A stretch of 24,015 nucleotides of DNA from the IMG/VR virus record IMGVR_UViG_2563366887_000004; one strand, 5' to 3'. Below the pieces are notes generated by a model, which made no database searches, was not told where the DNA came from, and saw nothing but the letters and a program-made list of their open reading frames with translations. Made by a program: the position numbers and the translations under genes. How positions within the stretch are numbered: the stretch's first letter is position 1; the number at the start of each line of letters is the position of its first letter. Shown one piece after another: positions 1,285-24,015 of this stretch. Source of the stretch: a virus. Taxonomy: Duplodnaviria; Heunggongvirae; Uroviricota; Caudoviricetes.

Positions 1285-1887
1285 AATTCACAGGTGTTTT
1301 TTCCCATCCTGTGGTTTCCTTGGCGTTTTCTAGGTTTTTTCAGATAGTTGCATTTTTTAAAAAGCATCCTAAGTTCGATCTCAGTGTCTATCTGGGGCCC
1401 ATTTCTGTCCCATATATGCCCCAAAAAAACTCCTCAACAGATAAGTAGTTTTTTCATGGAGTTACGCGTAAAATCAATAACGGCTGGAAATCATTCAATA
1501 CTCGCACTATCGAAAAATTTACCAGCCAACCGCAGCACGTTCTTGCATAAGGCGTGTCTGCGGTTTTTCAACTATTCAGATACATCACTCCCATCACATT
1601 CATTCCTCCACATCAAAGGCATATAGGCTATATCACCTTGATATTTTTCTTCTTCAGATAAAAACTGTTATCTATGTATACTTTTAAACCCAATCCGTGT
1701 AGAGTCTCTGCATAAGATAGTTTGCAGTTGCCACTTCAGCTTGCGCCATAAACCGCCTGATTTTTGCCGCCATCTGTTAGCATTCCTGTATACCTGAAAC
1801 GACAATGTTTATCTACGAACTTTAAGAACACCCAGGATAAAAATTGTCAACTATATCATATATAACACATTACTAATTCGAGGCTAT

Positions 1888-2069: not shown

Positions 2070-2303
2070 ATGAAATCAAAAGACACCCTAAAGTGGTTCC
2101 CTGCGCAGCTTCCTGAAGTCAGAATTATCCTAGGGGATGCTGTAGTGGAAGTAGCAAAACAGGGAAGACCTATCAATACCAGAACATTGCTTGATTACAT
2201 TGAAGGAAACATAAAGAAAAAATCATGGCTGGATAACAAAGAATTATTACAAACAGCGATATCAGTTCTTAAAGACAACCAAAATTTAAATGGTAAAATG
2301 TAA
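2070..2303 (+). CDS. ydfK: YdfK-like small prophage protein (77 aa)
   Basis: ORF-track ORF 2037..2303; the internal Met (MKSKDTLKWFPAQLPEV...) gives a 77-aa product that I recognise as YdfK of Qin. Position between ydfJ and pin matches the Qin gene order. Confidence 0.7.
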   Translation: MKSKDTLKWFPAQLPEVRIILGDAVVEVAKQGRPINTRTLLDYIEGNIKKKSWLDNKELLQTAISVLKDNQNLNGKM

Positions 2304-2619
2304 TATAATAAACTTACTTTTTTATCATTTTTCCACTTTAACAACATTTTGCTCCACTTTTCCACGACCAAACAACTTGAAATCTGGTTAAAATAACACG
2401 CAACACTATTCTTCTTCCTTGAGTCCGCCCGGAACTCGAAAAACAAACCGAGTTAAAGCCATTTTTCACAAAATCGATTTTGGGTCTCACCAAAGTTACG
2501 GGGTTGCATACGCATTCGTTTATTTTCGAACGTGTACATACAAATATGCACAAAAATAATCAAAATTATTTTCTGAGATGCATTATGATATGAACACCAA
2601 TTTCGTATAGAGTCTCACT

Positions 2620-3210
2620 ATGTCTCGAATTTTTGCTTACTGTCGGATATCAACGCTGGATCAGACCACCGAAAATCAACGCCGGGAAATCGAAAGTGCA
2701 GGTTTTAAAATCAAACCTCAGCAAATAATCGAAGAACACATTAGCGGCTCAGCAGCAACCAGTGAGCGTCCTGGTTTTAACCGGTTGCTTGCTCGCCTGA
2801 AATGTGGTGATCAATTGATTGTGACAAAACTGGATCGCCTTGGTTGTAATGCAATGGATATCAGGAAAACAGTGGAACAACTGACCGAAACAGGTATCAG
2901 AGTGCATTGCTTAGCATTGGGGGGCATTGACCTGACCAGTCCAACAGGAAAAATGATGATGCACGTAATTTCAGCAGTCGCTGAATTTGAACGAGACCTT
3001 TTACTTGAACGCACTCATTCCGGGATAGTAAGAGCCCGCGGCGCAGGGAAACGTTTTGGTCGACCACCTGTGTTAAATGAAGAACAGAAACAGGTGGTAT
3101 TCGAACGAATTAAGTCAGGTGTAAGTATAAGTGCCATTGCCCGGGAATTCAAAACCTCGCGGCAAACCATTTTAAGAGCCAAAGCAAAACTTCAGACACC
3201 TGACATATAA
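2620..3210 (+). CDS. pinQ: serine recombinase, Pin/Gin/Hin/Cin-type DNA invertase
   Basis: 196 aa; N-terminal catalytic region [16 protein letters not shown] (active-site Ser in the R-x-S-T motif) and C-terminal HTH; adjacent to tail fibre and tfa genes as in e14/Mu/P1 inversion systems. Confidence 0.9.
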
Positions 3211-3307
3211 AAAATAATCTCGGTGTGAGATGCTTTACGTCTTCCAAGCCCCCTTCCTTGCCGTAAATGGAGAGATACATCTAATTATAGAATTTATATG
3301 TTTTACC

Positions 3308-3883
3308 CTACGGCAGTGCTGGCCATTCAATATCCGGTGCAGTTGATGTATCAACACGGTTCAGCAACACCCGATACTTTTTCCAGGCTTCCAGCAACAA
3401 GGTTTCTTCCTCCGTTGCGATCTCCAGATCCACAGCATCCTGAAGCGGCGCTATATGCTCACTGGCTATCTGCATCAGGCTGTTTTTTGTTTCTTCCGCC
3501 TCCCGGATCCGGAACAGTTTTTCTGCTTCCGTATCCTTCACCCAGGCTGTGCCGTTCCACTTCTGATATTCCCCTCCCGGCGATAACCAGGTAACATTTT
3601 CCGGTAACGGACCGAGTTCAGAAATAAATAACGCGTCCCCTGATGCCACGTCATAAACCGTTTTACCCCGATGATCTTCAACGAGATGCCACGATGCCTC
3701 ATCACTGTTGAAAACAGCCACGAAGCCTGCCGGAATATCTGGCGGTGCAATATCGGTACTGTTTGCTGGCAGACCTGTATGAGGCGGAATATATGCGTCA
3801 CCTTCACCAATAAATTCATTAGTTCCGGCCAGCAGATTATAAATTTTTATGGTCCGTGGTTGTTCACTCATTCTGAATGCCAT
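3308..3883 (-). CDS. tfaQ: tail fiber assembly protein
   Basis: 191-aa ORF immediately downstream of a tail-fibre C-terminal fragment on the same strand; recognised as Tfa-family sequence with the Qin TfaQ length. Confidence 0.85.
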
Positions 3884-4191
3884 TACGCAAGCCTCACAAT
3901 ATAGTTAAATGCGATGTTTTTGACGGTGTTTTCCGCGTTACCAGCAGCGTTAACGGTGATGGTATGTCCATGTGAACCAATCGCAACGGAGTGCGTATGA
4001 GCACCAATGCCGACAGTATGTGCGTGTGCACCTGCGCTTGCAGCAGTACCCGATACAGAGTGCGTATGAGCGCCTGCAGAAGAAGTGTTAACACTGTATT
4101 CAGAATAATCAGGTGATCCACTTCCCGGAGCACCACTGGAACCACCTGAAACAAATGTCATCGAATGGGTATGTGCACCGGCTGTCCCCAT
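3883..4191 (-). pseudogene. stfQ: side tail fiber C-terminal fragment with repeated G-A-H-T-H-S (HxH) motifs
   Basis: 102-aa ORF containing GAHTHS x3 plus GAHAHT and GSHGHT, typical of distal tail-fibre tips; far too short for a complete fibre; abuts tfaQ with a 1-nt overlap. Confidence 0.7.
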
Positions 4192-4480
4192 GCATTTACC
4201 GCCCGGACTGTCAGCCTGTAATTTCCCAGCGCCAGCTGCGTGAAGCGATATGTGGTTTCCGTCGTCCGGGCCGTGCTGACCAACCGCTCACTGCCGTCGT
4301 CCGCTGCCACGGTCAGGCGAAGCATAAAGCTCACCCCCTTCACCACCTTCGGCGTGTCCCAGCGCGCCAGCACCTGGTATTCCCCGCTGTCTGCGGTGAC
4401 TTCTGCGGTCAGGTGCTGAACTGCTGGCGGCGTGACACCATTCACCGTGCCGCTCTGGTCACCGTCAAAGTGCGCCCCGT
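4186..4480 (-). pseudogene. internal fragment of a lambda J-like host-specificity (central tail fibre) protein
   Basis: Translation ...FDGDQSGTVNGVTPPAVQHLTAEVTADSGEYQVLARWDTPKVVKGVSF...[12 protein letters not shown] matches my recollection of an internal region of lambda J; bounded on both sides by frame breaks (junctions with the nohA 3' end and the stf fragment). Confidence 0.6.
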
Positions 4481-4987
4481 TATCAGTTCATCCAGCGCGG
4501 CTGCTTTGTTCATGGCTTTGATGATATCCCGTTTCAGGAAATCAACATGTCGGTTTTCCAGTTCCGGAAAACGCCGCTGCACCGACAGGGGGATCCCGTC
4601 GAGAATACTGGCAATTTCACCTGCGATCCGCGACAGCACGAAAGTACAGAATGCGGTTTCCACCACTTCAGCGGAGTCTCTGGCATTTTTCAGCTCCTGT
4701 GCGTCGGCCTGCGCACGCGTAAGTCGATGGCGTTCGTACTCAATAGTCCCTGGCTGGAGATCTGTCTCGCTGGCCTGCCGCAGTTCTTCAACTTCCCGGC
4801 GCAGCTTTTCGTTCTCAATTTCAGCATCCCTTTCGGCATACCATTTTATGACGGCGGCAGAATCATAAAGCACCTCATTACCCTTGCCACCGCCTCGCAG
4901 AACGGGCATTCCCTGTTCCTGCCAGTTCTGAATGGTACGGATACTCGCACCGAAAATGTCAGCCAGCTGCTTTTTGTTGACTTCCAT
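4442..4987 (-). CDS. nohA: terminase small subunit Nu1 homolog; C-terminal tail replaced at a deletion junction
   Basis: 181-aa ORF MEVNKKQLADIFGASIRTIQNWQEQGMPVLRGG... appears near-identical to lambda Nu1 (from memory) up to ...AALDELI, then diverges (TGRTLTVTRAAR) where the sequence continues into a J fragment. No terminase large subunit follows. Confidence 0.85.
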   Translation of the reverse strand: MEVNKKQLADIFGASIRTIQNWQEQGMPVLRGGGKGNEVLYDSAAVIKWYAERDAEIENEKLRREVEELRQASETDLQPGTIEYERHRLTRAQADAQELKNARDSAEVVETAFCTFVLSRIAGEIASILDGIPLSVQRRFPELENRHVDFLKRDIIKAMNKAAALDELITGRTLTVTRAAR

Positions 4988-5200
4988 TGTTCATTCCACG
5001 GACAAAAACAGAGAAAGGAAACGACAAAGGCCAAAAAGCCCGCTTTCAGCACCTGTCGTTTCCTTTCTTTTCAGGGGGTATTTTAAATAAAAACATTAAG
5101 TTACGACGAAGAAGAACGGAAACACCTTAAACCGGAAAATTTTCATAAATAGCGAAAACCCGCGAGGTCGCCGCCCCGTAACCTGTCGGATCACCGGAAA
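4988..5200 (-). other. lambda-type cos region: cosB (inverted R-site repeats) and cosN with the 12-nt cohesive-end sequence GGGCGGCGACCT
   Basis: Minus strand at 5176..5165 reads GGGCGGCGACCT, the known lambda cohesive end. Between cosN and the Nu1 start, inverted copies of AGGAAACGACAG-like R elements occur (about 5013-5066). Position immediately upstream of Nu1 is canonical. Confidence 0.7.
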
Positions 5201-5375
5201 GGACCCGTAAAGTGATAATGATTATCATCTACATATCACAACGTGCGTGGAGGCCATCAAACCACGTCAAATAATCAATTATGACGCAGGTATCGTATTA
5301 ATTGATCTGCATCAACTTAACGTAAAAACAACTTCAGACAATACAAATCAGCGACACTGAATACGGGGCAACCTC

Positions 5376-5609
5376 ATGTCAACGAAGAACAGAACCCGCA
5401 GAACAACAACCCGCAACATCCGCTTTCCTAACCAAATGATTGAACAAATTAACATCGCTCTTGAGCAAAAAGGGTCCGGGAATTTCTCAGCCTGGGTCAT
5501 TGAAGCCTGCCGCCGGAGACTGTGCTCAGAAAAAAGAGTTTCTTCTGAAGCAAACAAAGAAAAGAGTGACATTACTGAATTGCTCAGAAAACAGGTCAGA
5601 CCAGATTGA
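5376..5609 (+). CDS. ynfO: small prophage protein YnfO-like (77 aa)
   Basis: 77-aa ORF at the Qin-equivalent position between cos and ydfO; assignment from recalled gene order, not from a recognised domain. Confidence 0.55.
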   Translation: MSTKNRTRRTTTRNIRFPNQMIEQINIALEQKGSGNFSAWVIEACRRRLCSEKRVSSEANKEKSDITELLRKQVRPD

Positions 5610-5666
5610 AGCAATTTAGATAATCGTGCAGACTACGCCCCCTCATATCACATGGAAGGTTTATCT

Positions 5667-6846: not shown

Positions 6847-7075
6847 GCAAAAAAGCTCCCGAAGGAGCCTTCATTTTCACTTTTTTAAATCCAACGACAG
6901 ACGGCTGGCATTTAAGTATTGTGAAATATTATCAAATGTAATCATCATTGATTTACAAAAGATACATTTTGCCCCGAAAGGATTCATGTCAGAAACATCA
7001 AAAGATGATGTTCTATACTGGGAACCATGACAACACGGGCATCTAAAGTGAATATGGTTTGTAATATTGTCTACC

Positions 7076-7288
7076 TCAAAGCGCCACTACATGAACAGCG
7101 GCAGGACCTTTAGGTCCGTTCTCAATACCAAATTCAACTTCCTGATTCTCAGTTAATGTTTTGAAATCGTTGCTCTGAATTGCTGAGAAATGGACAAACA
7201 CATCTTTGCTGCCATCTTTCGGCGTGATGAAACCAAAACCTTTTTCAGGGTTAAACCATTTCACTAAACCAGTCATTTTGTTAGACAT
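7076..7288 (-). CDS. cspI: cold-shock protein (CspA family)
   Basis: 70 aa with RNP1/RNP2-like motifs KGFGFI and VFVHF; sequence [23 protein letters not shown]...; long 5' UTR upstream. Confidence 0.9.
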
Positions 7289-7650
7289 AATTATTACCTT
7301 TTGAAGAAATTAGCCCTTGGGCAGAATGGTCCGAAAAAAAATATCAGAGAGAAAAACCAACAAGGAAATCTCAAGAGGTACAAATAATAAAATTATAACA
7401 ATGACTGCTTCAGATAAATTTGTAACAAACCAGAACACCATTAACGCATGATTAACCACCCATAGCAAGGATTACTTTTGTAAAGAAAAACACAGCAATG
7501 AAAGAATAGCTTTATTTATTAATAAAACGTGTCATTCTGATTAAGACCTTTTATCTTACCCTTAAGATTTCAGGAATTTTGGCTCATGGAAGAGTCCTTT
7601 TTATTTAAATTTTACATTCCGCGATGTAAATGTTCCGATTTAATATTACC

Positions 7651-9680: not shown

Positions 9681-9959
9681 GATTGTGGTGCTTTTTGTGG
9701 GAGTCATCCACTTACGCACTTTGTTTTGCCATGCCAGCAGTTAGCTTCTGCTGTAAAACTATTCATGCAGCAAACCTGCACTTCACCACAATGGTTAGCA
9801 TACTTTTCCTGATTAAGATTTTGCCAAATATGCTAGCCATTGTTTCATGTATTGGACCTCCTTACTTTTTATTAAAGAGATCCAATATTCACTACTCTGT
9901 CCGTATCTCTACTCAGGCATCAGCCTTCTTCGTTATCGTATACAGACGAGCGATGAATT

Positions 9960-10175
9960 TTAATCAGTAATGATGACATTTGCTGCTGCAGGACCTTTAG
10001 CACCACTCTCTATAGAGAAGGTAACCTTTTGACCTTCAAATAAGGTTCGATAATTATCATTCTGAATCGCAGAAAAATGCACAAACACATCTTTACTACC
10101 ATCAACAGGAGAAATAAAGCCGAAACCTTTATCAGCGTTAAACCATTTTACTAAACCAGTCATTTTATTTGACAT
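9960..10175 (-). CDS. cspB: cold-shock protein (CspA family)
   Basis: 71 aa [23 protein letters not shown]...; recognised as the CspB sequence. Confidence 0.9.
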
Positions 10176-10475
10176 TCTACATTCCTTAACTTGAGCCTTT
10201 CGGCATAAATGGTTTGCATAACAGAAACGACTTCGTACTTAATTGGAGAGACTCAAAGAAGGAATAAGTGAATAACACCTGAAATGAGAACTGCTTTAGT
10301 AAACTACTTCGTATATCGTCTGTTCTTCAAACCGACGCAATCATTAACGCATAGTTGAACATATGAAGCAATGTTTATTTTAGACATCCAGCCATCTTCA
10401 ACCCCATCAAAAAACTATAGCTTTCTTCAGGAACGTGTGTATAGTGCGCCAAGTTATCAGTATTAAGGAATTTTT

Positions 10476-10688
10476 TTGTCCCGTAAAATGACAGGAATTG
10501 TCAAAACCTTTGACGGCAAAAGCGGCAAGGGTCTTATCACCCCATCCGATGGTCGTATCGATGTCCAGCTTCATGTTTCAGCGCTCAATCTCCGCGATGC
10601 AGAAGAAATTACCACCGGATTACGCGTGGAATTTTGCCGGATAAATGGTCTGCGTGGCCCTTCAGCTGCCAATGTTTACCTTTCATGA
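10476..10688 (+). CDS. cspF: cold-shock protein family member
   Basis: 70 aa [37 protein letters not shown]...; a divergent Csp paralog recognised as CspF. Confidence 0.85.
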
Positions 10689-11109: not shown

Positions 11110-11740
11110 TTATCTCGTCACCTTCCTCAATTGCGCTTCCGCGTATGCTTCTTCCTGCCAGCACTTTGTTACCAGTTTACCAATGACGTCCGCATACCCC
11201 TTATACCACTGATAATCGGTCAGGTCTGGTACCAGCTTCTGGACATGACGTCGTGCCAGCGTGGTCGGTAAACGACTAAACCGGTTTCCATTACAACGCC
11301 CACAAATCTTATATACCGGTACGCCATGAAACCGGGTTCTTTTTTCATCCAGAACAATCCCTTTACCCTTACACCCTCTGCACGCTGTGCTGGCTTCGCC
11401 CTTACCATGGCAATGCTGACATAGTTCCTTCACCAGAACAGGTCTAAGTAATACCCGCACGTTACCTCCAGATCCGTTGCTGGAAAGTGCGGGACGCACG
11501 TGGTGGGCGTTCGGAATAAGGCAGCCTGACAGAGATTATCCAGTGCCGATAGTCGAGACTGAGAGCTTTCTTAACCTCGAACCCGCGCCTGCGGTAAGAA
11601 TGAATCAGCCATTCGGCCTGTTCTGCAGTGCATGGAGGGTGCTGGAACCATTCAGACTTGAATGCGTGAGAATACCGCCCGTGCGTGCAGGCAAGAACGG
11701 GCGAATTATCAGAATTGTAATATTTTGCGTTGCGTGCCAT
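11110..11740 (-). pseudogene. quuQ: Q-family late antiterminator, split into two overlapping frames (apparent frameshift)
   Basis: The C-terminal ORF (11110..11499) carries lambda-Q-like zinc-finger and C-terminal motifs (CQHCHGKG...CRGCKGKG, CGRCNGNRFSRLP). The N-terminal 92-aa ORF (11462..11740) is in a different frame; the 631-nt span is not a multiple of 3 and together the two pieces total about 210 aa, like lambda Q (207 aa). Confidence 0.6.
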
Positions 11741-12430: not shown

Positions 12431-12501
12431 AGCCTGCTTCTCCTGTCAACGCAAAGCAGAAGTGTCACCTTCGGTGCGAAACAGAGATGTCATGCTTTGG
12501 T

Positions 12502-13028: not shown

Positions 13029-13039
13029 GTCTTACACCT

Positions 13040-13537: not shown

Positions 13538-13560
13538 TGCTTTTTTAAAAGGAGAAATCT

Positions 13561-13893: not shown

Positions 13894-13907
13894 GTGACAG
13901 CCGTATT

Positions 13908-14329: not shown

Positions 14330-15643
14330 TCAATCTTTTTTATCGGGATCAGGCTTCTTTTTAGGTAACTTCGGGGGCTTAACTTGCTGATGACTTTGCG
14401 TTCGGCGCGTAAGCCAGGGATGGTCAGCTTTAGGTTTAACATAGTATTTTGAGCGTAAATCAATACGGGCATTATCCACTCGTTCATGGACACTCTTTTC
14501 ATCATCCAGTGGTATAGGCTCCGGGCCATCAACATACTTTTCCCAGCCCAGCGCTTTCCCGTCATACAGAACGTTAATTTCACCGTCAAAGTTCTCGCAT
14601 ACAGTAACAACCGAATGCCTAAGTCGATATCCCCGGCCCTCACTGCGTACCTGAAACGCACTGCTTTTGTACTGGAAAGTGAGATTTTTAGACAGAACGC
14701 GCTTCGCCTGTAGGCTGAAGATATAACCCAGTTCCTCTTCAGAATGGTGCACATCAAGATGAGCATTATCAGTAGTACGAGGCGACGTAGCGAACCGGTT
14801 GTTATAGGCTTCAATAAAGGTCGGCAACCATGCATTTGCTGTTTCAATATCACTGATATTCTGAAGCCGCATTTCTTTGACCAGCCTGTCCTGTAGTGTC
14901 TGATTGGCGCGCTCTACCCGCCCTTTTGCCTGCGGGCTGTTGGCATGGATTGGCTCGATGCCCAGTGTCTTTATCGCACGAGTGAACTGGGTCAGCTCAC
15001 CTTCCCGCTCTGGGTTATTTACCCTGAATATACTGTGTCTATCAGAGTAGAGAGCGAGCGGTACGCCATGATCATTAAGGTAACCCCGGAGGGTTTCCAT
15101 GTAAGCCCGGGTTGTTTCAGCAGGCACAAAACGCAACGCCATCAACGCACTGGTGGCATCATCAATGAAAACGATCAGTGTACATCTGGGGCCTCGATTT
15201 TCAAACCAGTCATGAGGTGAGCCATCAATCTGGATCAGTTCACCGTAAGATGGTCGTCGCATGCGGCGTTGATATATACGGGCAATTTTACGACGGCGTT
15301 CACGCCATAACCCCTCTTCTATCATCCACTTTCTGAGAGTTTCAACGGATAAAGATAAACCGTGTATCTCGCGCAATTTTTCGCACGCAAACGTAGGTCC
15401 AAAATCAGCGTAACGGCCTTTGAGGAGTGAAATTACTGTTGCTCTGAATTCAGTAGAAAAGGAATTATTAGGACGCTTTCCACGTCGGTGGGAAACCAGA
15501 CCAGAAGGCCCTTCATTTCTATACCGTTGCACCAGACGTTTAACCTGCCGAATAGAAATGCCAATGCGTGCCGCAGCTTGTTCCTGAATAATCTGAAGTC
15601 GGTGGAGTTCCTTATGACTCATCGTAACAGTCTCTTTGATCAT
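14330..15643 (-). CDS. DDE-type transposase/integrase with N-terminal HTH and rve-like catalytic core (IS481/ISNCY-like; family not resolved)
   Basis: 437 aa; HTH-like N-terminus (IGISIRQVKRLVQRY) and catalytic-core motifs (IQIDGSPHDW, VFIDDATSA, YSDRHSIF, KGRVERANQTL); strong SD GGGGGA 7 nt upstream of the ATG. Element termini not resolved. Confidence 0.8.
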   Translation of the reverse strand: MIKETVTMSHKELHRLQIIQEQAAARIGISIRQVKRLVQRYRNEGPSGLVSHRRGKRPNNSFSTEFRATVISLLKGRYADFGPTFACEKLREIHGLSLSVETLRKWMIEEGLWRERRRKIARIYQRRMRRPSYGELIQIDGSPHDWFENRGPRCTLIVFIDDATSALMALRFVPAETTRAYMETLRGYLNDHGVPLALYSDRHSIFRVNNPEREGELTQFTRAIKTLGIEPIHANSPQAKGRVERANQTLQDRLVKEMRLQNISDIETANAWLPTFIEAYNNRFATSPRTTDNAHLDVHHSEEELGYIFSLQAKRVLSKNLTFQYKSSAFQVRSEGRGYRLRHSVVTVCENFDGEINVLYDGKALGWEKYVDGPEPIPLDDEKSVHERVDNARIDLRSKYYVKPKADHPWLTRRTQSHQQVKPPKLPKKKPDPDKKD

Positions 15644-15977
15644 GAAAAATCCCCCAGAGAATTGTCTGGGGACATTTTAGAATGGTTCAAAGGGGACATT
15701 ACAGCTTGGTGTTAACAATAGCCTGCTTCTCCGTGCCTTTCGGCACGTAAGAGGCTAACCTACATGTGTCTAGCATGAAATTGGCCTCAGATTAATGTTA
15801 AGCGTCTTGCAGGACGCGTAATGTTAACTGGGGCTTTTCTCTATCTGCCGTTGGTGTCCATGCCCGAGGCAGATAGCCTCAAGCACCCGCAGTCATTCTA
15901 CTTAACTAAGATTTCCCCGCAAACCGTTTTTGTCCAGCACAGTAAATATCCAACTAAACCAATGGAGTTCGCTGTAT

Positions 15978-16157
15978 TTACCGCCAGTATTCAATGCACA
16001 TGACCGCCATGAACACCCCTAAAAAAAGGGCATTTATATATCCAAATATTAATATCAAAACATCAACTTTTTCCATATACCTTGCTGTGAAGATGATGGG
16101 CATACATGATGCGAACAACCAGAACGCAACAAACAAAAACTGCAATGCGTTTTTCAT
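15978..16157 (-). CDS. candidate small membrane protein (59 aa, two predicted TM helices)
   Basis: Internal ATG of ORF-track ORF 15978..16196 preceded by a near-perfect SD (TAGGAGGAATA-ATG); product MKNALQFLFVAFWLFASCMPIIFTARYMEKVDVLILIFGYINALFLGVFMAVMCIEYWR. No homology evidence. Confidence 0.3.
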   Translation of the reverse strand: MKNALQFLFVAFWLFASCMPIIFTARYMEKVDVLILIFGYINALFLGVFMAVMCIEYWR

Positions 16158-16259
16158 TATTCCTCCTACAATCAATGTGCAATTACATTTAAACACACCT
16201 CAATTTGGCCGGACATATAAATATCTAAACCAGAAAAAATCACTTACATAGCGTTACAA

Positions 16260-16920
16260 ACTCTTTAGTCTAAAGGTTCATCGTAAAACATTCCCCATAC
16301 TTATCAGTCCGTTCCGCGCCAGGTAGCTCATTGCCTTATCTGGCAACCTGTAATCAGGTTTCCGCTTTTTCAGTTGGCTGGTCGTTTAACCGACATAGTT
16401 AATCCATTAATCTAGTTGCCGGATGTTGGTGGATTTTCGCGTTTTAGTTGTTCATAAAAGTGCACAGCTTTAACCAGTTCTTCTGATGTAACTGGGACTG
16501 GTGAGGCAGTGAATAAGGCCTGAATTTGATAGTTCGGCCTGTCGTTACAATCCTCTTTTTTCGGTACATATTTCCAGTCACCAGACCACTACTTCCCCTG
16601 AAAGTCCGTAACGCCTTTTTTCACGTAGCGATATCGCCATGCCACTGGTTTTGCTTGCCCCGCCGTTTCATGCCCTTCCTGATAATTAATCTCGCTCATT
16701 CATCGCCCCACTCATCACAATATGCTTCGACCGGAGTTTTTCCCGCTTCATAGTCATCACGCTAGGATTCGACATCAGCAGCACTTCCACCGCGTAACTC
16801 ACCATAGTCCATTAATAGTTCATCCCGCTCTTCAAAACTGATGTTATATTTAGCTGAACAAAAATCAGCCACTTTGTTCTTCCTCATCGTCTTTTATTTC
16901 GTGGTATGAGTAATTGCAGT
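16260..16920 (-). pseudogene. degraded coding remnant: protein-like segments in shifting frames interrupted by stops
   Basis: Minus-strand translation gives protein-like pieces in consecutive frames (MRKNKVADFCSAKYNISFEERDELLMDYGELRGGSAADVES*RDDYEAGKTPVEAYCDEWGDE*; MSEINYQEGHETAGQAKPVAWRYRYVKKGVTDFQGK*; WSGDWKYVPKKEDCNDRPNYQIQALFTASPVPVTSEELVKAVHFYEQLKRENPPTSGN*), consistent with a frameshifted/nonsense-disrupted gene. Confidence 0.3.
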
Positions 16921-17309
16921 AGTTAAAGAAAATTTCTTATGCTCCGTCATGAATTTCCTCAGGTGTTGCGTCATCGTCCACTTCGAATACATCCTCAAAA
17001 TCTCCACCAGCTATTCCCGTTTCAATAATAATTTTGAACTTTCGCATTTCACTACCGCCCTTTCGGGCGGCCTCCTGATGTTCTGAGGGTGCAGAAATCC
17101 ATCCGGTTAAGGATTAAATTTTATTTACAGAACTGAATTTAATTATTCAGATATACGTATCTGTAGCCTTACGAATCTACTCACTGGATGCCTCTTTCAT
17201 AAAAATAATCCAGTGGGTTTTATCGTTTTTTCCCTGTTCGTTGACAGATAACAGGTTTTCTGTCTGTCAGTGCCAGAATCTGGCTTACCGGTATTTGCGT
17301 TTCATTCCA

Positions 17310-17666
17310 TTAAAAAATCAGAACGCCGTGCGGCCTCAACACCCGAAAGGCTTCTTTAAATCTCTGTCGCGAATCATCACGCCAGGCATCTTTATTCAGC
17401 CGTCCATATTTCTTTCCCATCCAGGCGTTATCACCAACACTCTCAAGATGCGGAGGGTCTAATACAACCATCGAAAAAGATGCGTCTGCAAATGATAATG
17501 CACGAAAATCTGCGATAATGTCAGGGCTGATAATCAAGCGTCTCCCATTGCGTAATGTGTATCCTTCTTTTCTGATATCGCTGAATATCGCCCGTTCGTC
17601 AGACTTATCGAACCAGAACATGCGGCTGCCACAGCACATATCAAGAATGGTTGCCGGTGCACTCAC
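17310..17666 (-). CDS. small amino-methyltransferase, likely phage DNA N6-adenine (Dam-like) methylase; possibly truncated
   Basis: 118 aa with SAM-binding motif I-like ILDMCCGS and a DPPH (NPPY-type) motif about 60 residues later, ending ...LRPHGVLIF; GTG start overlaps the stop of the upstream ORF (translational coupling). Confidence 0.55.
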   Translation of the reverse strand: MSAPATILDMCCGSRMFWFDKSDERAIFSDIRKEGYTLRNGRRLIISPDIIADFRALSFADASFSMVVLDPPHLESVGDNAWMGKKYGRLNKDAWRDDSRQRFKEAFRVLRPHGVLIF

Positions 17667-17929
17667 TGCGCCACGTCCTGAAAATTACCCTGATAGAAAG
17701 CCAGTATGCGCTGCATAACTTCGCTCTTCCGGCACTCGCGACAGATTATGTTTAGGCGACTGTCGTAGCGACGTATTTCTCCGTCAGGTGATGACCAGAT
17801 AAGGTCCGGATCAACCACAGCAGGTTTCTTCACCTTTGCCCTCGAGAGTTTTTTGCGGGCGTTTTGCCAGTCCTTACGCGCCTGTTCAGAGGGGAATAAC
17901 CCGTATCCGGAGCTTAAGTTGCACGCCAT
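17663..17929 (-). CDS. hypothetical protein (88 aa) upstream of and coupled to the methyltransferase
   Basis: ATG-initiated ORF with protein-like basic/charged composition and a CxxC pair (CRECRK); its stop overlaps the methyltransferase GTG start. Its 5' end overlaps the divergent exonuclease-gene frame. Confidence 0.35.
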   Translation of the reverse strand: MACNLSSGYGLFPSEQARKDWQNARKKLSRAKVKKPAVVDPDLIWSSPDGEIRRYDSRLNIICRECRKSEVMQRILAFYQGNFQDVAQ

Positions 17930-18283
17930 TGGGTGGGTTAAGCATAAATGTATTCCTGGTGCTAAATGGCCCGAAATTCAGGCAGAGATGCGCATCTGGA
18001 AAAAACGTCGCGAAGGTGAACGCAAGGAAACCGGAAAATACACGTCTGTTGTTGATCTCGCCCGCGCCAGAGCCAATCAACAGTACACTGAAAATTCAAC
18101 AGGAAAAATCAGCCCGGTCATTGCTGCCATTCATCGCGAATACAAGCAGACATGGAAAACACTGGATGACGAACTGGCCTACGCTCTCTGGCCTAGTGAT
18201 GTGGATGCCGGAAACATTGACGGCAGCATCCATCGCTGGGCAAAAAAAGAAGTTATCGACAACGACCGCGAAGACTGGAAGCG
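17853..18283 (+). pseudogene. 5' part of an insertion-disrupted exonuclease-family gene (upstream of the IS600-like insertion)
   Basis: Open frame from 17853 (TTG) with a candidate ATG at 17988; the frame runs into the IS terminal repeat, which supplies the last five codons (EVYWQ*). Continues in-frame at 20771 once the IS and one copy of the GCG duplication are removed. Confidence 0.6.
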
Positions 18284-18326
18284 TGAGGTGTACTGGCAAT
18301 AGCGGACACTACCATTTGTTCTTTTT

Positions 18327-19145
18327 TTAAGCAGCCATCTGATGATATTTTTCCCTGAAGGCTGCCGGGGAGATATTCCCCAGACGAGAGTGACGACGCT
18401 GACGATTGTAGAAAATCTCAATGTATTCCCGTATTACTGAGATGGCTTCATCCCGGTTATTAAAACGATAGTGGCTCAGGCTCTCATTTTTCAGCGTTCC
18501 CCAGAAGCTTTCCATCGGAGCGTTGTCGTAACAGTTACCTTTACGCGACATTGATGTTTTCAGACCAAACTGCTCCTGTATGACCCGGTAATCGTATGCG
18601 CAGTACTGTGAACCTCGATCAGAGTGGTGGATTAGCCCGGCAGGTGGGCGCTGGCTCCTGAGCGCCATAAACAGGGCTTTACCTGTCAGCTCTTTTGTCA
18701 TGCACTCTCCCATGGCGTAGCCGACAATTTCGCACGTATAAACATCTTTGATGCCAGCGAGGTACAACCATCCCTCCTGTGTGGCAACATACGTCAGGTC
18801 CGCCACCCAGACCTGATTTGGTGCTGTAGGAGCGAACGTCTGGTTCAGCAGATTTGGCGCAACTGGCAGATTGTGGTTCGAGTTCGTAGTCGCTCTGAAC
18901 TTGCGTTTCTGCTTACAGCGTAGCCTTAGCTCCTTACGAAGACGTGCCAGTCGGTCACGACCAACGATGATGCCATTCTCTGCCAGCTCCGTCTGGAGCC
19001 GCCGGGTTCCATATGTTTCGCGAGTGCGGATATGTGCCACCTTAATCTCCAGTTTTAGCCGCTCATCACTTTGTTTTCTGTCTGAGGGTTCATGCTGTAC
19101 CCAGTTGTAATAACCGCTCCTGGATACACCAAATACCTGACACAT
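18327..19145 (-). CDS. IS3-family (IS600-like) transposase OrfB, DDE catalytic domain
   Basis: 272-aa ORF MCQVFGVSRSGYYNWVQHEP... with DDE motifs (WVADLTYV, HHSDRGSQY, NCYDNAPMESFWGTLK); the frame overlaps the 3' end of orfA as expected for a -1 frameshift fusion. Confidence 0.85.
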   Translation of the reverse strand: MCQVFGVSRSGYYNWVQHEPSDRKQSDERLKLEIKVAHIRTRETYGTRRLQTELAENGIIVGRDRLARLRKELRLRCKQKRKFRATTNSNHNLPVAPNLLNQTFAPTAPNQVWVADLTYVATQEGWLYLAGIKDVYTCEIVGYAMGECMTKELTGKALFMALRSQRPPAGLIHHSDRGSQYCAYDYRVIQEQFGLKTSMSRKGNCYDNAPMESFWGTLKNESLSHYRFNNRDEAISVIREYIEIFYNRQRRHSRLGNISPAAFREKYHQMAA

Positions 19146-19222
19146 CGCTTCAATGGGAAATTGTTGTCGCCATTGTTCGATTAACGCGTATTTTTCAGCG
19201 ACTCCTGTGCAAAATACGCTGT

Positions 19223-20443
19223 TGTAGATTCAATCTGTCAATGCAACACCCCTTTCAATTATCTCTTTCGGTGTTTTGAACTTCAGTGTCTTTCTCGGTC
19301 TGTTGTTTAGCTGAGCAGCAACCAGATCTAGTTCATGTTGAGTATATTGGGCAAGACATGTCTTTTTAGGAAAGTACTGCCGAATTAGCCCATTTGTGTT
19401 CTCATTTGTTCCCCGCTGCCAAGGACTCTGAGGATCGCAGAAGTAAACTTTAACGCCGGTGCTGACAGTAAATTCTAGATGTCTGGCCAGTTCCATTCCT
19501 CTGTCCCATGTCAGTGATTTTCTGAGTTCTGACGGTAAACTCAGGAATTTGTCGGTAAGAGCCTGATTTACTGAGACAGAATCTTTGCCCCTGAGTCTAA
19601 GGATGATCGTATAACGTGATTTTCGGTCTACAAGTGTGGCTATATGAGAGTTTTTTGTACCTGAGACTAAATCGCCCTCCCAATGTCCCAGAGAGCGTCT
19701 GTTATCGATATTTCGGGAACGTTCGTGAATTGGTGTTCCGTTCACTATGTTAATCGTACCTCTTTCGCCTTTGCGGGTATGACGCCTGCCATGGCGAAGG
19801 CTATGCGACCGTCGCAGATGCTGTATATTCAGGTGGTGTAGCGCTTCACGGCTACGAAAGTACAGCGTTTTATAAATTGTCTCAGGTGATATTCGCAGCG
19901 TTTTTTGACGTGGTTTTGTTCGCCTTAACCATCCTGATATTTGCTCTGGAGACCATTTCATCTCCAGCTTTTCCAGAACAAGCTTTCGCAATGGTAAATT
20001 TTGATCCAGTAAGCACGGTTTTGGCCTTTTCGCCATTCTGTTGGCTCGGTTATTAGCATCAACAGCTTTGTAATAGCGTCTGCCCCGATTACGCTGAACT
20101 TCACGTGAGATCGTCGAAGGACTGCGATTCAGCGCAGTAGCTATCGCACGAATGCTCATTTTGGCTGACAAACCAGCTCGTATCTCCTCGCGCTCAGACA
20201 GTGTCAGGTGAGCTACAGCCCGCTTACGCTCATGGGGTTTTATGCCGCCAGTATCCCTTAACATAGTGAAGATCGTTCCGGGTTTTGAACCCAGGATATT
20301 CGCTATTTCACTGAAGCCTGTTCCGTTCTTCCATAGTTCAAAAACAGAGGCTTTTTCCTCTGCTGTAAATGTTCGTCTCATTCAAAAAACCTCCGCAACC
20401 CCATGTTTTCACATAACTGTTGCGTTGACCAATTGAATCTACA
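19223..20443 (-). mobile_element. IS30, complete (1221 bp) with terminal inverted repeats and 2-bp target-site duplication GT
   Basis: Ends TGTAGATTCAAT... (19223) and ...ATTGAATCTACA (20443); the 20443 end on the minus strand reads TGTAGATTCAATTGGTCAACGCAACAGTTATGTG, matching the IS30 IR as I recall it; length exactly 1221 bp; GT at 19221-19222 and 20444-20445. Confidence 0.9.
19230..20381 (-). CDS. insI: IS30 transposase (383 aa)
   Basis: 383-aa ORF MRRTFTAEEKASVFELWKNGTGFSEIANILG... recognised as IS30 transposase; lies within the IS30 boundaries. Confidence 0.95.
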   Translation of the reverse strand: MRRTFTAEEKASVFELWKNGTGFSEIANILGSKPGTIFTMLRDTGGIKPHERKRAVAHLTLSEREEIRAGLSAKMSIRAIATALNRSPSTISREVQRNRGRRYYKAVDANNRANRMAKRPKPCLLDQNLPLRKLVLEKLEMKWSPEQISGWLRRTKPRQKTLRISPETIYKTLYFRSREALHHLNIQHLRRSHSLRHGRRHTRKGERGTINIVNGTPIHERSRNIDNRRSLGHWEGDLVSGTKNSHIATLVDRKSRYTIILRLRGKDSVSVNQALTDKFLSLPSELRKSLTWDRGMELARHLEFTVSTGVKVYFCDPQSPWQRGTNENTNGLIRQYFPKKTCLAQYTQHELDLVAAQLNNRPRKTLKFKTPKEIIERGVALTD

Positions 20444-20770
20444 GTTGCTTTTTTTAATATATCTCGCTCAAGGCGAGCTTCATTTAACGCCTTACGCAGT
20501 TGCAGAATTTCAGATTCCAGTTCAGCCACCGTGCGGGAACCAGGAGTACCGAGCCCTTTTCTGGCGGCGGTAACCCATTGTCCTAAAGTGCCTTCAGGAA
20601 GAGATAATCGGGAAGCGCCTTCACTGATCGAAAGTTGATTTTCAAGAACCGTTCTGACAGCTTCGGCTTTGAACTCTTTAGAGTAACGTTGGGTTTTTCT
20701 GCTCATTATTAGCTCCTTCTGATGCCATTCTATTTCAGGAAGGAGTGTCCGTTAAACTCAGGCTACCTCA

Positions 20771-22376
20771 GCGTATCTCGGCATCAATGCGCAAACAGCC
20801 TGATGCCCTTCGCTACGACCGCCAAACTATTTTTGGCCTTGTCCGTGAGCGTCCGATCGACATTCACAAAGATCCCGTAGCACTGAACAAATATATCTGC
20901 GAATACCTGACGACAAAGGGCGTGTTTGAGAATGAAGAAACAGACCTGGGCACTGTTGATGTTCTCCAGTCATCAGAAACACAAACTGATGCAGTGGAAA
21001 CTGAGGTATCTGATATCCCAAAAAATGAAACCGCGCCGGAAGCTGAACCATCTGTAGAGCGTGAGGGGCCGTTCTATTTCCTCTTCGCAGATAAGGACGG
21101 AGAAAAATACGGTCGCGCAAACAAACTCTCTGGTCTGGATAAGGCACTGGCTGCTGGCGCCACTGAAATCACAAAAGAAGAATATTTTGCCCGAAAAAAT
21201 GGCACATACACGGGCTTACCGCAAAATGTAGATACCGCTGAAGATTCAGAACAACCAGAGCCGATAAAAGTTACCGCTGACGAAGTAAACAAAATTATGC
21301 AGGCAGCCAATATCAGCCAGCCTGACGCCGATAAGTTGCTTGCTGCATCACGTGGTGAATTTGTTGAAGGGATTAGTGACCCGAATGATCCGAAATGGGT
21401 TAAGGGGCTCCAGACCCGCGATTCTGTGAACCAGAACCAGCATGAATCGGAACGGAACTACCAAAAAGCGGAACAAAACAGTCCAAATGCGTTACAAAAC
21501 GAGCCAGAAACGAAACAGCCTGAACCAGTAGCGCAACAGGAAGTGGAAAAAGTCTGCACCGCCTGCGGTCAGACCGGCGGCGGCAACTGCCCTGATTGTG
21601 GCGCGGTGATGGGCGACGCAACATACCAAGAAACATTCGATGAAGAGTATCAGGTTGAAGTTCAGGAAGATGATCCGGAGGAAATGGAAGGCGCTGAACA
21701 TCCACACAAGGAGAACACTGGCGGCAATCAGCATCACAATAGCGATAATGAAACTGGCGAGACGGCAGATCACCCAATTAAGGTGAACGGTCATCACGAA
21801 ATCACATCCACCAGCAGGACGTGTGACCATCTAATGATCGACCTTGAAACCATGGGAAAAAATCCTGATGCCCCGATCATCTCAATAGGTGCAATATTTT
21901 TCGATCCGCAAACCGGAGATATGGGACCGGAATTTAGTAAGACTATCGATCTGGAAACTGCTGGCGGAGTCATTGATCGGGACACCATTAAATGGTGGCT
22001 TAAGCAATCACGCGAAGCGCAATCTGCCATTATGACCGATGAAATCCCGTTAGATGATGCACTGTTACAATTGCGAGAATTTATCGACGAAAACTCCGGT
22101 GAATTTTTTGTTCAGGTTTGGGGAAATGGAGCCAACTTCGACAACACGATTTTGCGCCGTTCATACGAACGGCAGGGGATCCCCTGCCCGTGGCGTTACT
22201 ACAACGATCGCGATGTACGCACAATCGTTGAGCTGGGGAAAGCCATAGACTTCGATGCCAGAACGGCTATTCCATTCGAAGGTGAGCGCCATAATGCACT
22301 TGATGACGCCCGTTACCAGGCAAAATACGTTTCAGTTATCTGGCAAAAACTGATCCCGAGTCAGGCTGATTCTTAA
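20771..22376 (+). pseudogene. 3' part of the insertion-disrupted gene: acidic linker, C4 zinc ribbon and C-terminal DEDDh 3'-5' exonuclease domain
   Basis: In frame with 17853..18283 across the IS. Contains CTACGQTGGGNCPDCG (zinc ribbon) and exonuclease motifs Exo I MIDLETMG, Exo II WGNGANFDNTIL, Exo III HNALDDARY. The ORF-track start at 20745 is a GTG inside the IS terminal repeat and is artefactual. Confidence 0.65.
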
Positions 22377-22448
22377 TGTTCAACTGTCGCCGGTTGTGAC
22401 TGGTATTCTGCAACCGGCGCTCGTCTGATGTAAGAGATAAAGAAATCG

Positions 22449-22700
22449 ATGAGCGAAGTAATCATGATTGTCTCTCCCGGCAAATGGGTATCCGAAGAGC
22501 AGTTAATTGCGCTGAAAGGAATAAAAAAAGGTACGTTAAAAAAGGCCCGGGAAAAATCGTTTATGGAAGGAAGGGAATATAAGCATGTCGCTCATGACGG
22601 TATGCCATGGGATAACAGTCCATGCTTTTACAACCTGGAAGAAATTGATCGCTGGATTGAGCGCCAGGCATCAGCGAGACCAAGACGTCATCTTACTTGA
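22449..22700 (+). CDS. excisionase-like small protein (putative Xis) upstream of the integrase
   Basis: 83-aa ORF immediately upstream of, and co-oriented with, the integrase gene. Assignment by position and size only. Confidence 0.5.
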   Translation: MSEVIMIVSPGKWVSEEQLIALKGIKKGTLKKAREKSFMEGREYKHVAHDGMPWDNSPCFYNLEEIDRWIERQASARPRRHLT

Positions 22701-22719
22701 CTAAAAGCCACACTAACTA

Positions 22720-24015
22720 ATGAGAGAAGTTGAAATGAAATATCCGACAGGCGTGGAAAACCATGGAGGGAAATTACGTATCTGGTTTGTTTATAAAGAC
22801 GTAAGAGTCAGGGAAAATCTGGGGGTTCCTGACACAGCAAAAAACAGGCGCGTTGCAGGTGAACTACGCTCCTCTGTTTGTTACGCAATAAAAACTGGTG
22901 TTTTCGACTATGCAAAACAGTTTCCCTCCTCACGCAATCTGGAAAAATTTGGTGAGGCCCGACAAGATTTAACCATAAAAGAACTGGCTGAAAAATTTCT
23001 GGCACTGAAAGAAACTGAAGTCGCCAAAACATCACTCAACACATACCGTGCCGTCATCAAAAATATCCTGAGCATAATCGGTGAAAAAAATCTTGCCTCA
23101 TCGATTAATAAAGAAAAATTACTGGAGGTTCGTAAAGAGTTACTGACTGGATACCAGATCCCCAAAAGTAACTATATTGTTACACAACCAGGGAGATCGG
23201 CTGTAACTGTAAATAATTACATGACAAATCTTAACGCCGTGTTCCAGTTTGGTGTTGATAACGGTTACCTGGCAGATAATCCGTTTAAGGGGATCTCGCC
23301 ATTAAAGGAATCAAGAACCATTCCGGATCCTCTTTCGCGGGAAGAATTTATCCGTCTTATCGATGCGTGCAGAAATCAGCAAGCAAAAAATTTATGGTGT
23401 GTTTCTGTTTATACTGGAGTTCGCCCTGGTGAGCTGTGTGCACTTGGATGGGAGGACATAGATCTGAAAAATGGAACAATGATGATCAGGAGAAATTTAG
23501 CAAAAGACCGTTTCACGGTACCAAAAACACAGGCGGGAACCAATCGGGTCATTCATCTTATTAAGCCAGCAATCGACGCTCTCCGGAGTCAGATGACATT
23601 AACGAGACTGAGCAAAGAGCATATCATTGATGTTCACCTCAGAGAGTATGGCAGAACAGAAAAACAAAAATGCACCTTTGTTTTTCAACCTGAAGTGTCA
23701 GCGAGAGTAAAAAATTATGGTGACCATTTTACCGTTGACTCAATAAGGCAGATGTGGGACGCAGCGATAAAACGTGCCGGACTCCGCCATCGAAAATCAT
23801 ATCAGTCGAGACATACTTATGCCTGCTGGTCGCTGACAGCTGGTGCTAACCCGGCATTTATAGCAAACCAGATGGGCCATGCAGATGCGCAAATGGTATT
23901 TCAGGTATACGGAAAATGGATGTCTGAAAACAATAATGCACAGGTAGCTTTGTTAAATACACAGTTAAGCGAGTTTGCCCCAACCATGCCCCATAACGAA
24001 GCAATGAAAAATTAA
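22720..24015 (+). CDS. intQ: tyrosine recombinase, phage integrase family (lambda Int-like)
   Basis: 431-aa ORF ending at the window edge; C-terminal catalytic region with SRHTYA and GHADAQMVFQVYGKW (putative His and Tyr nucleophile). An alternative start at 22735 (MKYPTGVENHGG...) has a better SD. The gene symbol is an inference from the Qin-like context. Confidence 0.85.
   Translation: MREVEMKYPTGVENHGGKLRIWFVYKDVRVRENLGVPDTAKNRRVAGELRSSVCYAIKTGVFDYAKQFPSSRNLEKFGEARQDLTIKELAEKFLALKETEVAKTSLNTYRAVIKNILSIIGEKNLASSINKEKLLEVRKELLTGYQIPKSNYIVTQPGRSAVTVNNYMTNLNAVFQFGVDNGYLADNPFKGISPLKESRTIPDPLSREEFIRLIDACRNQQAKNLWCVSVYTGVRPGELCALGWEDIDLKNGTMMIRRNLAKDRFTVPKTQAGTNRVIHLIKPAIDALRSQMTLTRLSKEHIIDVHLREYGRTEKQKCTFVFQPEVSARVKNYGDHFTVDSIRQMWDAAIKRAGLRHRKSYQSRHTYACWSLTAGANPAFIANQMGHADAQMVFQVYGKWMSENNNAQVALLNTQLSEFAPTMPHNEAMKN

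Follow-up and report, generated by a model that had tools for sequence, protein, structure and literature searches.

What has to happen to a lambda-like prophage for its packaging site and small-terminase gene to survive where nearly all head and tail genes have gone, and could a phage still make use of such a site? The question is raised by a locus within a 24,015-nucleotide stretch of DNA (IMG/VR virus record IMGVR_UViG_2563366887_000004), referred to here over its whole length as the window. The locus is a non-K-12 allele of Qin (Kim), a cryptic lambda-like prophage of E. coli. This assignment follows from its 100% identity to E. coli FORC_081, whose RefSeq annotation places tfaQ, a tail-fibre pseudogene, a J-related pseudogene, nohA and ynfO between ydfJ and the remainder of Qin, and from the annotation of the K-12 counterpart as "cryptic prophage Qin". 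The element has ydfJ on one side and rspB on the other, and contains the Qin gene set. Very probably, the segment analysed here is the cos and left-arm stump of this defective lambdoid prophage beside ydfJ, in a non-K-12 allele from which the morphogenesis module was deleted stepwise. The Qin remnant has long been known, and the observation made earlier from the letters of the DNA alone (the sequence-only reading) is real and correctly interpreted, although the finding itself is ordinary.

Positions 5538..4475 on the minus strand are collinear with lambda 48141–48502 followed by lambda 1–703, at 98% identity. The homologue of the lambda right end (5177..5538, minus strand) corresponds to lambda 48141–48502 at 98.3% identity, and 5176..4475 corresponds to lambda 1–703 at 98.2% identity (E = 0). 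The 12-nt cohesive-end sequence of cosN, GGGCGGCGACCT, lies at 5165..5176 on the minus strand, exactly where the sequence-only reading had put it, as a perfect match and the sole copy in the window. cosQ is a 7-bp termination element located about 30 bp or less upstream of cosN. Since the 124 bp preceding cosN show no difference from lambda 48379–48502, cosQ is identical to that of lambda, provided that it falls inside this stretch.

The stretch equivalent to cosB (lambda bp 13–190) was located by alignment to lambda at 4988..5164, minus strand, and differs from lambda in five places (C53T, A73G, T102C, delA137 and C151T). cosB carries three TerS-binding R elements, with R2 in the orientation opposite to that of R3 and R1 (PMC4669245). 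A search with GTTTCCKTTCT recovered the R3 core GTTTCCGTTCT at 5113..5123 (minus strand), the inverted R2 core GTTTCCTTTCT at 5058..5068 (plus strand) and the R1 core, again GTTTCCTTTCT, at 5012..5022 (minus strand). The motif occurs exactly three times in the 24 kb, against 0.04 expected, and three occurrences were reached in none of 100 shuffles. The cores are unchanged and lie at the lambda positions in the orientation −, +, −, and the inverted R elements of cosB type that had been proposed are thus present in the lambda arrangement. Their spacing equals that of lambda except that 1 bp is deleted between R2 and R1. When the window is aligned with lambda and seven phages, R3 bp 56, 58 and 59, which matter for recognition (PMC4669245), are invariant. 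The interval between R3 and R2, with the putative IHF site I1, has the lambda length and differs only by A73G and T102C. Chance or artefact is ruled out by these R cores together with E-values of 0 and the single exact cosN.

All five cosB variants, including the two in the R3–R2 interval, are carried by the isolated phage 2H10, and the cosB haplotype of the window is therefore one in use by a viable phage. Two of the variants, C53T at the 5' edge of R3 and A73G near the IHF site, are taken to be neutral solely from their occurrence in 2H10. Judged from its sequence, the site is intact as cosQ–cosN–cosB, and is probably cleavable by a helper terminase, given that every cosB difference is found in 2H10. 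The proposal that this cos could be recognised by the terminase of a superinfecting lambdoid phage is likewise supported as far as sequence can tell, by the identity of cosN and the 124 bp upstream, the unchanged R cores and R3 bases, and the 2H10 variants.

Beyond cosB lies nohA (4442..4987, minus strand), identified from its open reading frame, PF07471 and alignment to lambda Nu1, which codes for a 181-aa homologue of Nu1, the small terminase subunit (TerS). It matches PF07471 over the full length of the profile (1–164 of 164, E = 3.9e-101). The near-identity to lambda Nu1 that had been noted over about 168 residues corresponds to 168 matches over residues 1–171. Residues 1–169 are those of lambda Nu1 with A75T and L132I (98–99% identity), and the N-terminal winged-HTH DNA-binding domain (residues 1–74) is 100% identical. 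Native Nu1 sequence stops at about residue 169–171, beyond which read-through into a fragment of gene J supplies the final 10–12 residues; the description of Nu1 as intact is accordingly accurate for nearly all of the protein, but not for this terminal segment, which has been replaced. The domain with which TerS binds TerL is assigned to the C-terminal 40 residues (PMC9026076), and the corresponding gpA-binding domain of NohA is incomplete, with about 28 of the 40 retained. By alignment, NohA is a Nu1 derivative with an unchanged DNA-binding domain and an altered extreme C-terminus. No homologue of gpA was detected in the window by tblastn with lambda gpA, and no A gene adjoins nohA.

The J fragment, an internal part of this tail-tip gene, occupies 4178..4484 (minus strand) and corresponds to lambda 17302–17608 at 91.9% identity. 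It covers J residues 600–702 approximately, includes the Ig_J domain (E = 6e-35) and retains a residual ORF at 4445..4158. The junction of Nu1 to J (junction 1), mapped by collinearity with lambda, reads GATAACGGGG at 4475..4484 on the minus strand, with the crossover within GATA at lambda Nu1 nt 694–697 and J nt 17302–17305; it had been placed at 4470–4481, at CGGGG. Junction 2, from J to the side tail fibre gene stf, reads CAGCCGG at 4178..4184 (minus strand), close to the earlier estimate of about 4186, and leaves the two frames out of phase. It leads into a C-terminal stf fragment (3883..4191, minus strand) with GAHTHS repeats and the C-terminus, of which a residual ORF of 102 aa remains. 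The alignment to lambda that had been suggested for mapping the deletion endpoints thus shows cos and Nu1 to be collinear and fixes both junctions at base resolution. That the J-like and Nu1-like segments are parts of another gene is ruled out, as each is collinear with lambda, the junctions are abrupt and junction 2 is out of phase; they are adjacent remnants, as had been read. Apart from Tfa, tblastn with 23 lambda morphogenesis proteins detected no other morphogenesis gene in the window. The loss of the large terminase subunit and of the head and tail genes is thereby confirmed, with the exception of the tail-related tfaQ (3308..3883, minus strand), a tail-fibre assembly gene that is intact and shares 96% identity with lambda Tfa. 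An intact serine invertase gene, pinQ (2620..3210, plus strand), flanks the remnant.

Identity to lambda is uneven along the locus, at 98% for cos–Nu1 versus 92% for the J fragment and 84% on the ydfO side. Such differences might be expected if the cos–Nu1 segment, instead of being an old remnant, had been patched in recently through homologous recombination with a lambda-like phage; its intact appearance would then be accounted for. Phages and cryptic prophages are documented to exchange DNA in this region (PMC3945230), and the pattern of phage PhiR34_1 and K-12 Qin switches exactly at cosN. Mosaic identity levels are, however, normal among lambdoid genomes, and A73G, T102C and delA137, spread across cosB, are common to the window and K-12 Qin, which fits common descent. 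A recent patch is therefore highly improbable, and the present structure and the expected behaviour of the site would be the same under either history.

K-12 Qin has the same site beside ydfJ, with cos and a Nu1 homologue, and flanks that are 98.5–99.8% identical and share pinQ, tfaQ, ynfO, ydfO, gnsB, cspI, rzpQ, rrrQ, essQ, cspB/F, rem, hokD, relBE and flxA. Identity of the two alleles is nevertheless ruled out, because the nohA–stfQ junction differs in both breakpoint and partner. The K-12 order is nohA (b1548), stfQ (b1547), tfaQ, pinQ. Here nohA breaks at about lambda nt 719, some 22 bp later than in the window (nt ~697), and is joined directly to a longer stf remnant (the 320-aa stfQ) without any J fragment, whereas the window allele keeps 307 bp of J and a shorter stf stump. 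Window positions 4072..4474 are represented in K-12 by 781 bp, which include stf sequence absent from the window. The different Nu1 breakpoint, the lack of J and this additional stf sequence mark the window and K-12 alleles as independent decay lineages.

A less collapsed form of the window allele is found at the same locus in strain 300709, where the order is Nu1–A'–W–B'–C'–G'–T–H'–J' and junction 2 is identical. Of 5426 complete genomes, 91 have junction 2 and 52 have junction 1; the Nu1–A' junction occurs in 5–6. Up to 372 genomes are of the K-12 type, and about 455 carry Qin. This intermediate with the same J–stf junction suggests stepwise decay, in which the lambda-type morphogenesis module would have been lost by successive microhomology-mediated deletions. 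The older deletion would have brought the 3' part of stf next to J at lambda-equivalent nt 17608, with CAGC(C)GG as the point of fusion. In a later one, most likely starting from a 300709-like intermediate, J nt 17302 would have become joined to Nu1 at codon ~169, through GATA(A)CGGGG. The J site, GATAACGGGG, and the Nu1–A' junction of 300709, GATAAAGGGG, agree in 9 of their 10 bases. The deletions may also have been independent events at the same GATA rather than sequential ones. The deletions, probably nested, account for the loss of nearly all head and tail genes, and spared the packaging site together with a small-terminase gene that is slightly truncated.

All three allelic forms (K-12, 300709 and the window) keep cos–Nu1, and their left breakpoints all lie in the last ~40 nt of Nu1. 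These shared breakpoints could hint at selection or at a deletion hotspot, instead of neutral decay. Under selection, the cos–nohA block might have been domesticated, either as a chromosomal cos that titrates terminase or with NohA as a decoy or dominant-negative anti-phage factor. By analogy with the Rpp protein of phage-inducible chromosomal islands (PICIs), NohA would bind cosB or form heterodimers with incoming TerS and recruit TerL poorly. The recurrent retention of cos and most of Nu1 is consistent with this, as is a DNA-binding domain 100% identical to that of Nu1 in a protein that has lost the end of its TerL-binding region; Rpp, a TerS-like winged-HTH protein without a TerL-binding tail, can redirect packaging (PMC9026076). 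On the other hand, an IS66 interrupts the cosB of 300709 between R2 and R1 without apparent counter-selection, junction-1 alleles are rare (52 of 5426 genomes), the gene for the Q antiterminator, the would-be driver of late transcription, is truncated in the window allele, and NohA still has some 28 of the 40 TerL-binding residues. K-12, which carries both nohA and nohD, is a standard permissive host for lambda, and this permissiveness too speaks against an anti-phage role. Domestication is thus very unlikely, and the survival of the region is best explained by incomplete decay.

In the element, which measures about 22.8 kb, an excisionase gene (22449..22700) and an integrase gene (22720..24015, an ORF of 431 aa) are intact, the latter in contrast to the intQ pseudogene of K-12. 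The whole Qin allele could on these grounds be pictured as a helper-dependent satellite that excises, forms dimers of about 45.6 kb and is transduced by a lambda-type helper; the dimers would be cosmid-like and within the capacity of the lambda head. Besides int and xis, the sequence-intact cos and the element size, taken from comparison with K-12 Qin, would suit this scheme. The window allele, however, lacks part of ydfT/ydfU and the dicBF region, immunity and dicBF being replaced by IS debris; the element shows no recognised replication module, its annotation lists no replication genes, and without replication dimers would be rare. Furthermore, the element has no Rpp-like gene, and a cosB of phage type implies that it would compete with a helper instead of hijacking it. 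A satellite of this kind is extremely unlikely.

Cos-type PICIs such as EcCICFT073 resemble the window in having an integrase, no morphogenesis genes, and a lambda-like cosQ and cosN beside a winged-HTH gene. Their cos differs in that it has no R sequences and another specificity, and the adjoining gene encodes Rpp, not TerS (PMC9026076); PICIs also replicate and block their helper. With phage-type R3, R2 and R1 and a genuine Nu1 in place of Rpp, the window is ruled out as a cos-type PICI. A further parallel is the cos–nohD region of DLP12 (qsr'), where a lambda-type cos and a Nu1 homologue are likewise stranded in a defective prophage. The 3.3 kb that DLP12 has in common with lambda include R, Rz and part of A, whereas homology to the right of cos in the window stops inside Nu1 at nt 703, with no A sequence. 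Recombinants of lambda and DLP12 cluster at cos, the nu1 gene of DLP12 is functional in lambda, and lambda recombines with Qin through stf–tfa homology; exchange between lambda and cryptic prophages at cos/Nu1 regions is thus already documented (PMC3945230). Within the library covered, the literature search found no paper specifically on Qin cos or nohA function. Two reports (PMC12946183 and PMC4752277) contain nothing specific to the cos of cryptic prophages, and PinQ acts on the P segment of e14, a region different from Qin cos–nohA (PMC12529663).

Compared with cos and gpNu1 of lambda, the Qin locus lacks gpA, a second cos in cis and the last ~12 native residues of Nu1. With no TerL, head or tail genes and a truncated Q antiterminator, the remnant alone would package nothing. 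In a cell in which a phage of lambda specificity is growing, its terminase should bind R3–I1–R2–R1 and nick cosN. The resulting chromosomal double-strand break would stimulate recombination between phage and prophage across the cos–Nu1 homology, and abortive packaging might proceed towards nohA, tfaQ, ydfJ and marRAB. No second exact cosN occurs within 50 kb downstream, and matches with two mismatches over the same distance are at chance level (5 observed versus 3.1 expected). Mature transducing particles are not expected, since packaging could not end without a second cos downstream, and specialised or lateral transduction of marRAB and its neighbours from Qin cos is unlikely for the same reason.

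Cryptic lambdoid prophages with stranded cos and Nu1 have long been familiar as a source of recombinant phages and as a nuisance in the genetics of lambda packaging, and the importance of the present finding extends little beyond bookkeeping. What it adds is a non-K-12 Qin allele mapped to base level and, through the 300709 intermediate, evidence for nested microhomology deletions independent of the K-12 lineage. It is a long shot that the allele is mobilised like a cosmid by helpers of lambda specificity, or that cos–NohA is kept for interference or module exchange with incoming phages; if it were kept, the breakpoints at the end of Nu1 would reflect selection for cos and for the DNA-binding and oligomerisation domains of TerS. 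Should helper terminase cut Qin cos in vivo, the site would constitute a fixed point of chromosome breakage and a recombination hotspot beside ydfJ–marRAB during the growth of lambdoid phages.

Over its 2.1 kb, the cos–nohA region has the same sequence as E. coli FORC_081 (100% identity), and at least 80% of it is covered in ~455 of 5426 complete E. coli genomes. RefSeq annotation lists tfaQ, a tail-fibre pseudogene, a 'phage tail tip protein J-related' pseudogene, nohA and ynfO, and the same element in K-12 MG1655 is annotated as 'cryptic prophage Qin'. The region is thus what remains of the cos / left arm of a defective lambdoid prophage that has long been known. The block is flanked by ydfJ on one side and by the rest of the Qin gene set on the other (ydfO, gnsB, cspI, rzpQ, rrrQ, essQ, cspB, cspF, rem, hokD, relBE, flxA), and the locus is an allelic variant within the Qin prophage family. 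Just within the ydfJ-proximal prophage end, 96 bp (window 1468..1563) are 84% identical to lambda b-region nt 24162–24256.

The right end of lambda (nt 48141–48502) aligns to window 5538..5177 (minus strand, 98.3%), and the match continues uninterrupted into lambda nt 1–703 at 5176..4475 (minus strand, 98.2%, one 1-bp gap), which bears out the collinearity expected from the sequence-only reading. As that reading also had it, the 12-nt cohesive-end sequence of cosN, GGGCGGCGACCT, lies at 5176..5165 (minus strand); it is the sole copy in the 24-kb window. The 124 bp preceding cosN do not differ from lambda, and cosQ lies inside this stretch. The proposed cosB-like inverted R elements are represented by three matches to the core GTTTCCKTTCT (0.04 expected by chance), namely R3 at 5123..5113 (minus), R2 at 5058..5068 (plus) and R1 at 5022..5012 (minus). 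Their order and orientation are those of lambda, R3→, R2←, R1→, as described by Feiss and colleagues (PMC4669245). The cosB of the window differs from that of lambda by C53T, A73G, T102C, ΔA137 and C151T; the critical R3 bp 56, 58 and 59 (PMC4669245) are the lambda bases. In cosN, the 124 bp before it, the R elements and the R3 recognition bases this is, by sequence, a lambda-type cos. A cos-type PICI was ruled out for the locus, as such elements have no R sequences and carry Rpp in place of TerS (PMC9026076). On the ynfO/ydfO side of cos, window 5593..6096 matches lambda 47023–47527 (lambdap78 region) at only 84%, giving a sharp mosaic boundary with the 98% cos–Nu1 block at about 5540–5590.

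The Nu1 homologue nohA (4987..4442, minus strand, 181 aa) gives a full-length Phage_Nu1 profile match (E = 4e-101). Its product has 168 matches to lambda Nu1 within residues 1–171, with residues 1–74 unchanged and differences at A75T, L132I and P170T, the last at the junction described below. The near-identity seen earlier therefore stands, but the gene is not intact: the native last ~12 residues of Nu1 are gone, and the last 10 of NohA are read-through into foreign sequence. TerL binding has been assigned to the C-terminal 40 residues of TerS (PMC9026076), and NohA lacks the end of this region. The homologue has neither an intact TerL-binding tail nor an adjacent A gene. In a tblastn search of the window with 23 lambda morphogenesis proteins, only Nu1, a J fragment, the Stf C-terminus and Tfa were matched, and none of A, portal, capsid or tail-shaft genes was found. 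The suggested loss of the large terminase subunit and all head and tail genes holds for these, but not for tfaQ, which survives intact (3883..3308, minus strand, 96% identity to lambda Tfa). The J fragment (4484..4178, minus strand; lambda 17302–17608, 91.9%) covers J residues ~600–702 with the Ig_J domain, and is followed by a tail-fibre C-terminal stump (4191..3883, minus strand), a 102-aa ORF with a phage tail-fibre repeat. pinQ lies at 2620..3210 (plus strand). Within the tfaQ coding region, 3342..3540 (minus strand) matches the Rfam RNA family IS009 at 221 bits.

Both predicted fusions were located. At 4484..4475 Nu1 changes to J, and comparison of the window (CTGATAACGGGGCGC) with lambda Nu1 (CTGATACCGGGGTTG) and lambda J (GTGGATAACGGGGCGC) places the crossover within GATA (earlier put at about 4470–4481, at a CGGGG microhomology). 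J changes to tail-fibre sequence at 4184..4178 (CAGCCGG; earlier put at about 4186): lambda J matches the window as far as ...GGGGACAGC, and the intact tail-fibre gene of strain Z1323CEC0009 matches from CAGCCGGTGCACAT on. The two reading frames are out of phase at this point. Junction-spanning probes, counted at a minimum of 80% probe coverage in 5426 complete genomes, detected the J–stf junction in 91 and the Nu1–J junction in 52; the K-12-type Nu1–stf join was found in up to 372, some of them two-piece joins, and a Nu1–A' join in 5–6.

The last type is that of E. coli strain 300709, which carries a less-collapsed Qin at the same locus. Here, the cos end comprises lambda 1–146, an IS66 insertion and lambda 138–703, followed by lambda 2177–3501 (A', W, B'), 5294–5626 (C'), 9780–10687 (G', T, H') and 15668–17608 (J'), a J–stf junction identical to that of the window, stf' and tfaQ. 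The IS66-family element (tnpA, tnpB, transposase; 12315–15012 of the locus record, L004) interrupts cosB between R2 and R1 and is bordered by a duplication of lambda bp 138–146; the cos of this allele is therefore physically split. The Nu1–A' junction reads GATAAAGGGG, directly after the same GATA, and the J site used in the window reads GATAACGGGG, a 9/10 match. A further deletion of ~4.2 kb between these decamers in a 300709-like ancestor would give exactly the sequence of the window. Alternatively, an independent deletion could have occurred at the same Nu1 GATA. Under either history, the morphogenesis module was lost stepwise through short-homology deletions. The left breakpoint after GATA (window 4481..4484, lambda Nu1 nt 694–697) was used by both junctions (L004 sites 15570–15580 and 19762–19771), and the K-12 Nu1 breakpoint is only ~22 bp further on. 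Sequential deletions could account for this pattern, as could a deletion hotspot or selection keeping most of Nu1.

K-12 Qin has flanks 98.5–99.8% identical to those of the window, but an unrelated 781 bp stands in place of window 4072..4474. Its nohA tracks lambda Nu1 to ~nt 719 and then joins stf directly. Since the J fragment is absent from K-12, and stfQ there retains stf sequence (lambda 21245–21523 equivalent) missing from the window, the K-12 form never passed through the J–stf junction, and the two alleles are independent decay lineages. Elsewhere, a 1461-bp deletion relative to K-12 (breakpoint ~11431..11434; K-12 locus record L003 14815–16275) has taken away most of ydfU together with the 5' part of ydfT, the Q-antiterminator gene, so the prophage's own late-gene activator is dead in the window allele. 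Window 14515..22855 is mostly unlike K-12 Qin: the dicC–dicA–dicF–dicB immunity/cell-division region is absent and is replaced by transposase genes or fragments of ISNCY, IS600 and IS30, by a SAM-dependent methyltransferase, by pseudogenes of DUF977 and DUF7167, and by a truncated gene with a 3'-5' exoribonuclease domain. In this non-K-12 part, 15717..15888 (minus strand) matches the Rfam sok antitoxin RNA at 104 bits and would be a second hok/sok-type locus besides hokD. Two cspA-thermoregulator 5'-UTR matches (7049..7434 and 9944..10336, minus strand) lie upstream of cspI and cspB, cold-shock genes of the prophage. The excisionase (22449..22700, plus strand) is intact, and a 431-aa ORF annotated 'site-specific integrase' (22720..24015, plus strand) ends with the window at its stop codon; in K-12, by contrast, intQ is an IS2-disrupted pseudogene.

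In an alignment of cosB from the window, lambda, K-12 Qin and seven phage genomes, all five window differences from lambda recur in the isolated phage 2H10, which over this stretch differs from the window only at bp 134, and an Stx1a phage has most of them. The cos region of the window is 98.2% identical to lambda, compared with 94–97% for many viable lambda-group phages. A lambda-specificity terminase supplied in trans would thus be predicted to bind and nick this cos, and the earlier suggestion of recognition by a superinfecting lambdoid phage gains support from the 2H10 variants, with precedent in K-12 defective prophages. These recombine with lambda; in lambda × DLP12 crosses the homology spans cos, 10/19 junctions were right at cos, and DLP12 nu1 is functional in lambda, while lambda × Qin recombination went via stf–tfa homology (PMC3945230). 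The Feiss laboratory uses E. coli C for the very reason that it avoids recombination with the cos DNA of defective prophages (PMC4669245). Rightwards of and including cosN, through Nu1 as far as ~nt 719, phage PhiR34_1 (PV340559; recorded host MG1655) and K-12 Qin are nearly identical and have the Qin-specific variants G134A, T145G and T176G in common, but over the ~80 bp to the left of cosN they differ. Such a switch at cosN resembles the product of recombination between phage and Qin, or may reflect shared ancestry; whichever origin holds, a viable phage functions with cosB–Nu1 of the Qin type.

The window has neither TerL nor structural genes by tblastn, and its Q antiterminator gene is truncated. 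Packaging would proceed cosN→nohA→tfaQ→ydfJ→dcp→marRAB→lsr→hipBA, and within 50 kb in this direction there is no second exact cosN, with 2-mismatch matches at chance level. Since termination of lambda packaging requires cosQ and cosN (PMC4669245), packaging begun at this cos would be abortive and should yield no mature transducing particles. It is very improbable that the intact int/xis, intact cos and ~22.8-kb size permit helper-dependent mobilisation, or that selection retains the cos–NohA pair. The object itself was known and annotated before, and there is experimental precedent for the idea of cos recognition. What is new is of a descriptive kind: a Qin allele other than that of K-12, an intermediate allele documenting nested deletions, and the repeated use of one Nu1 breakpoint.
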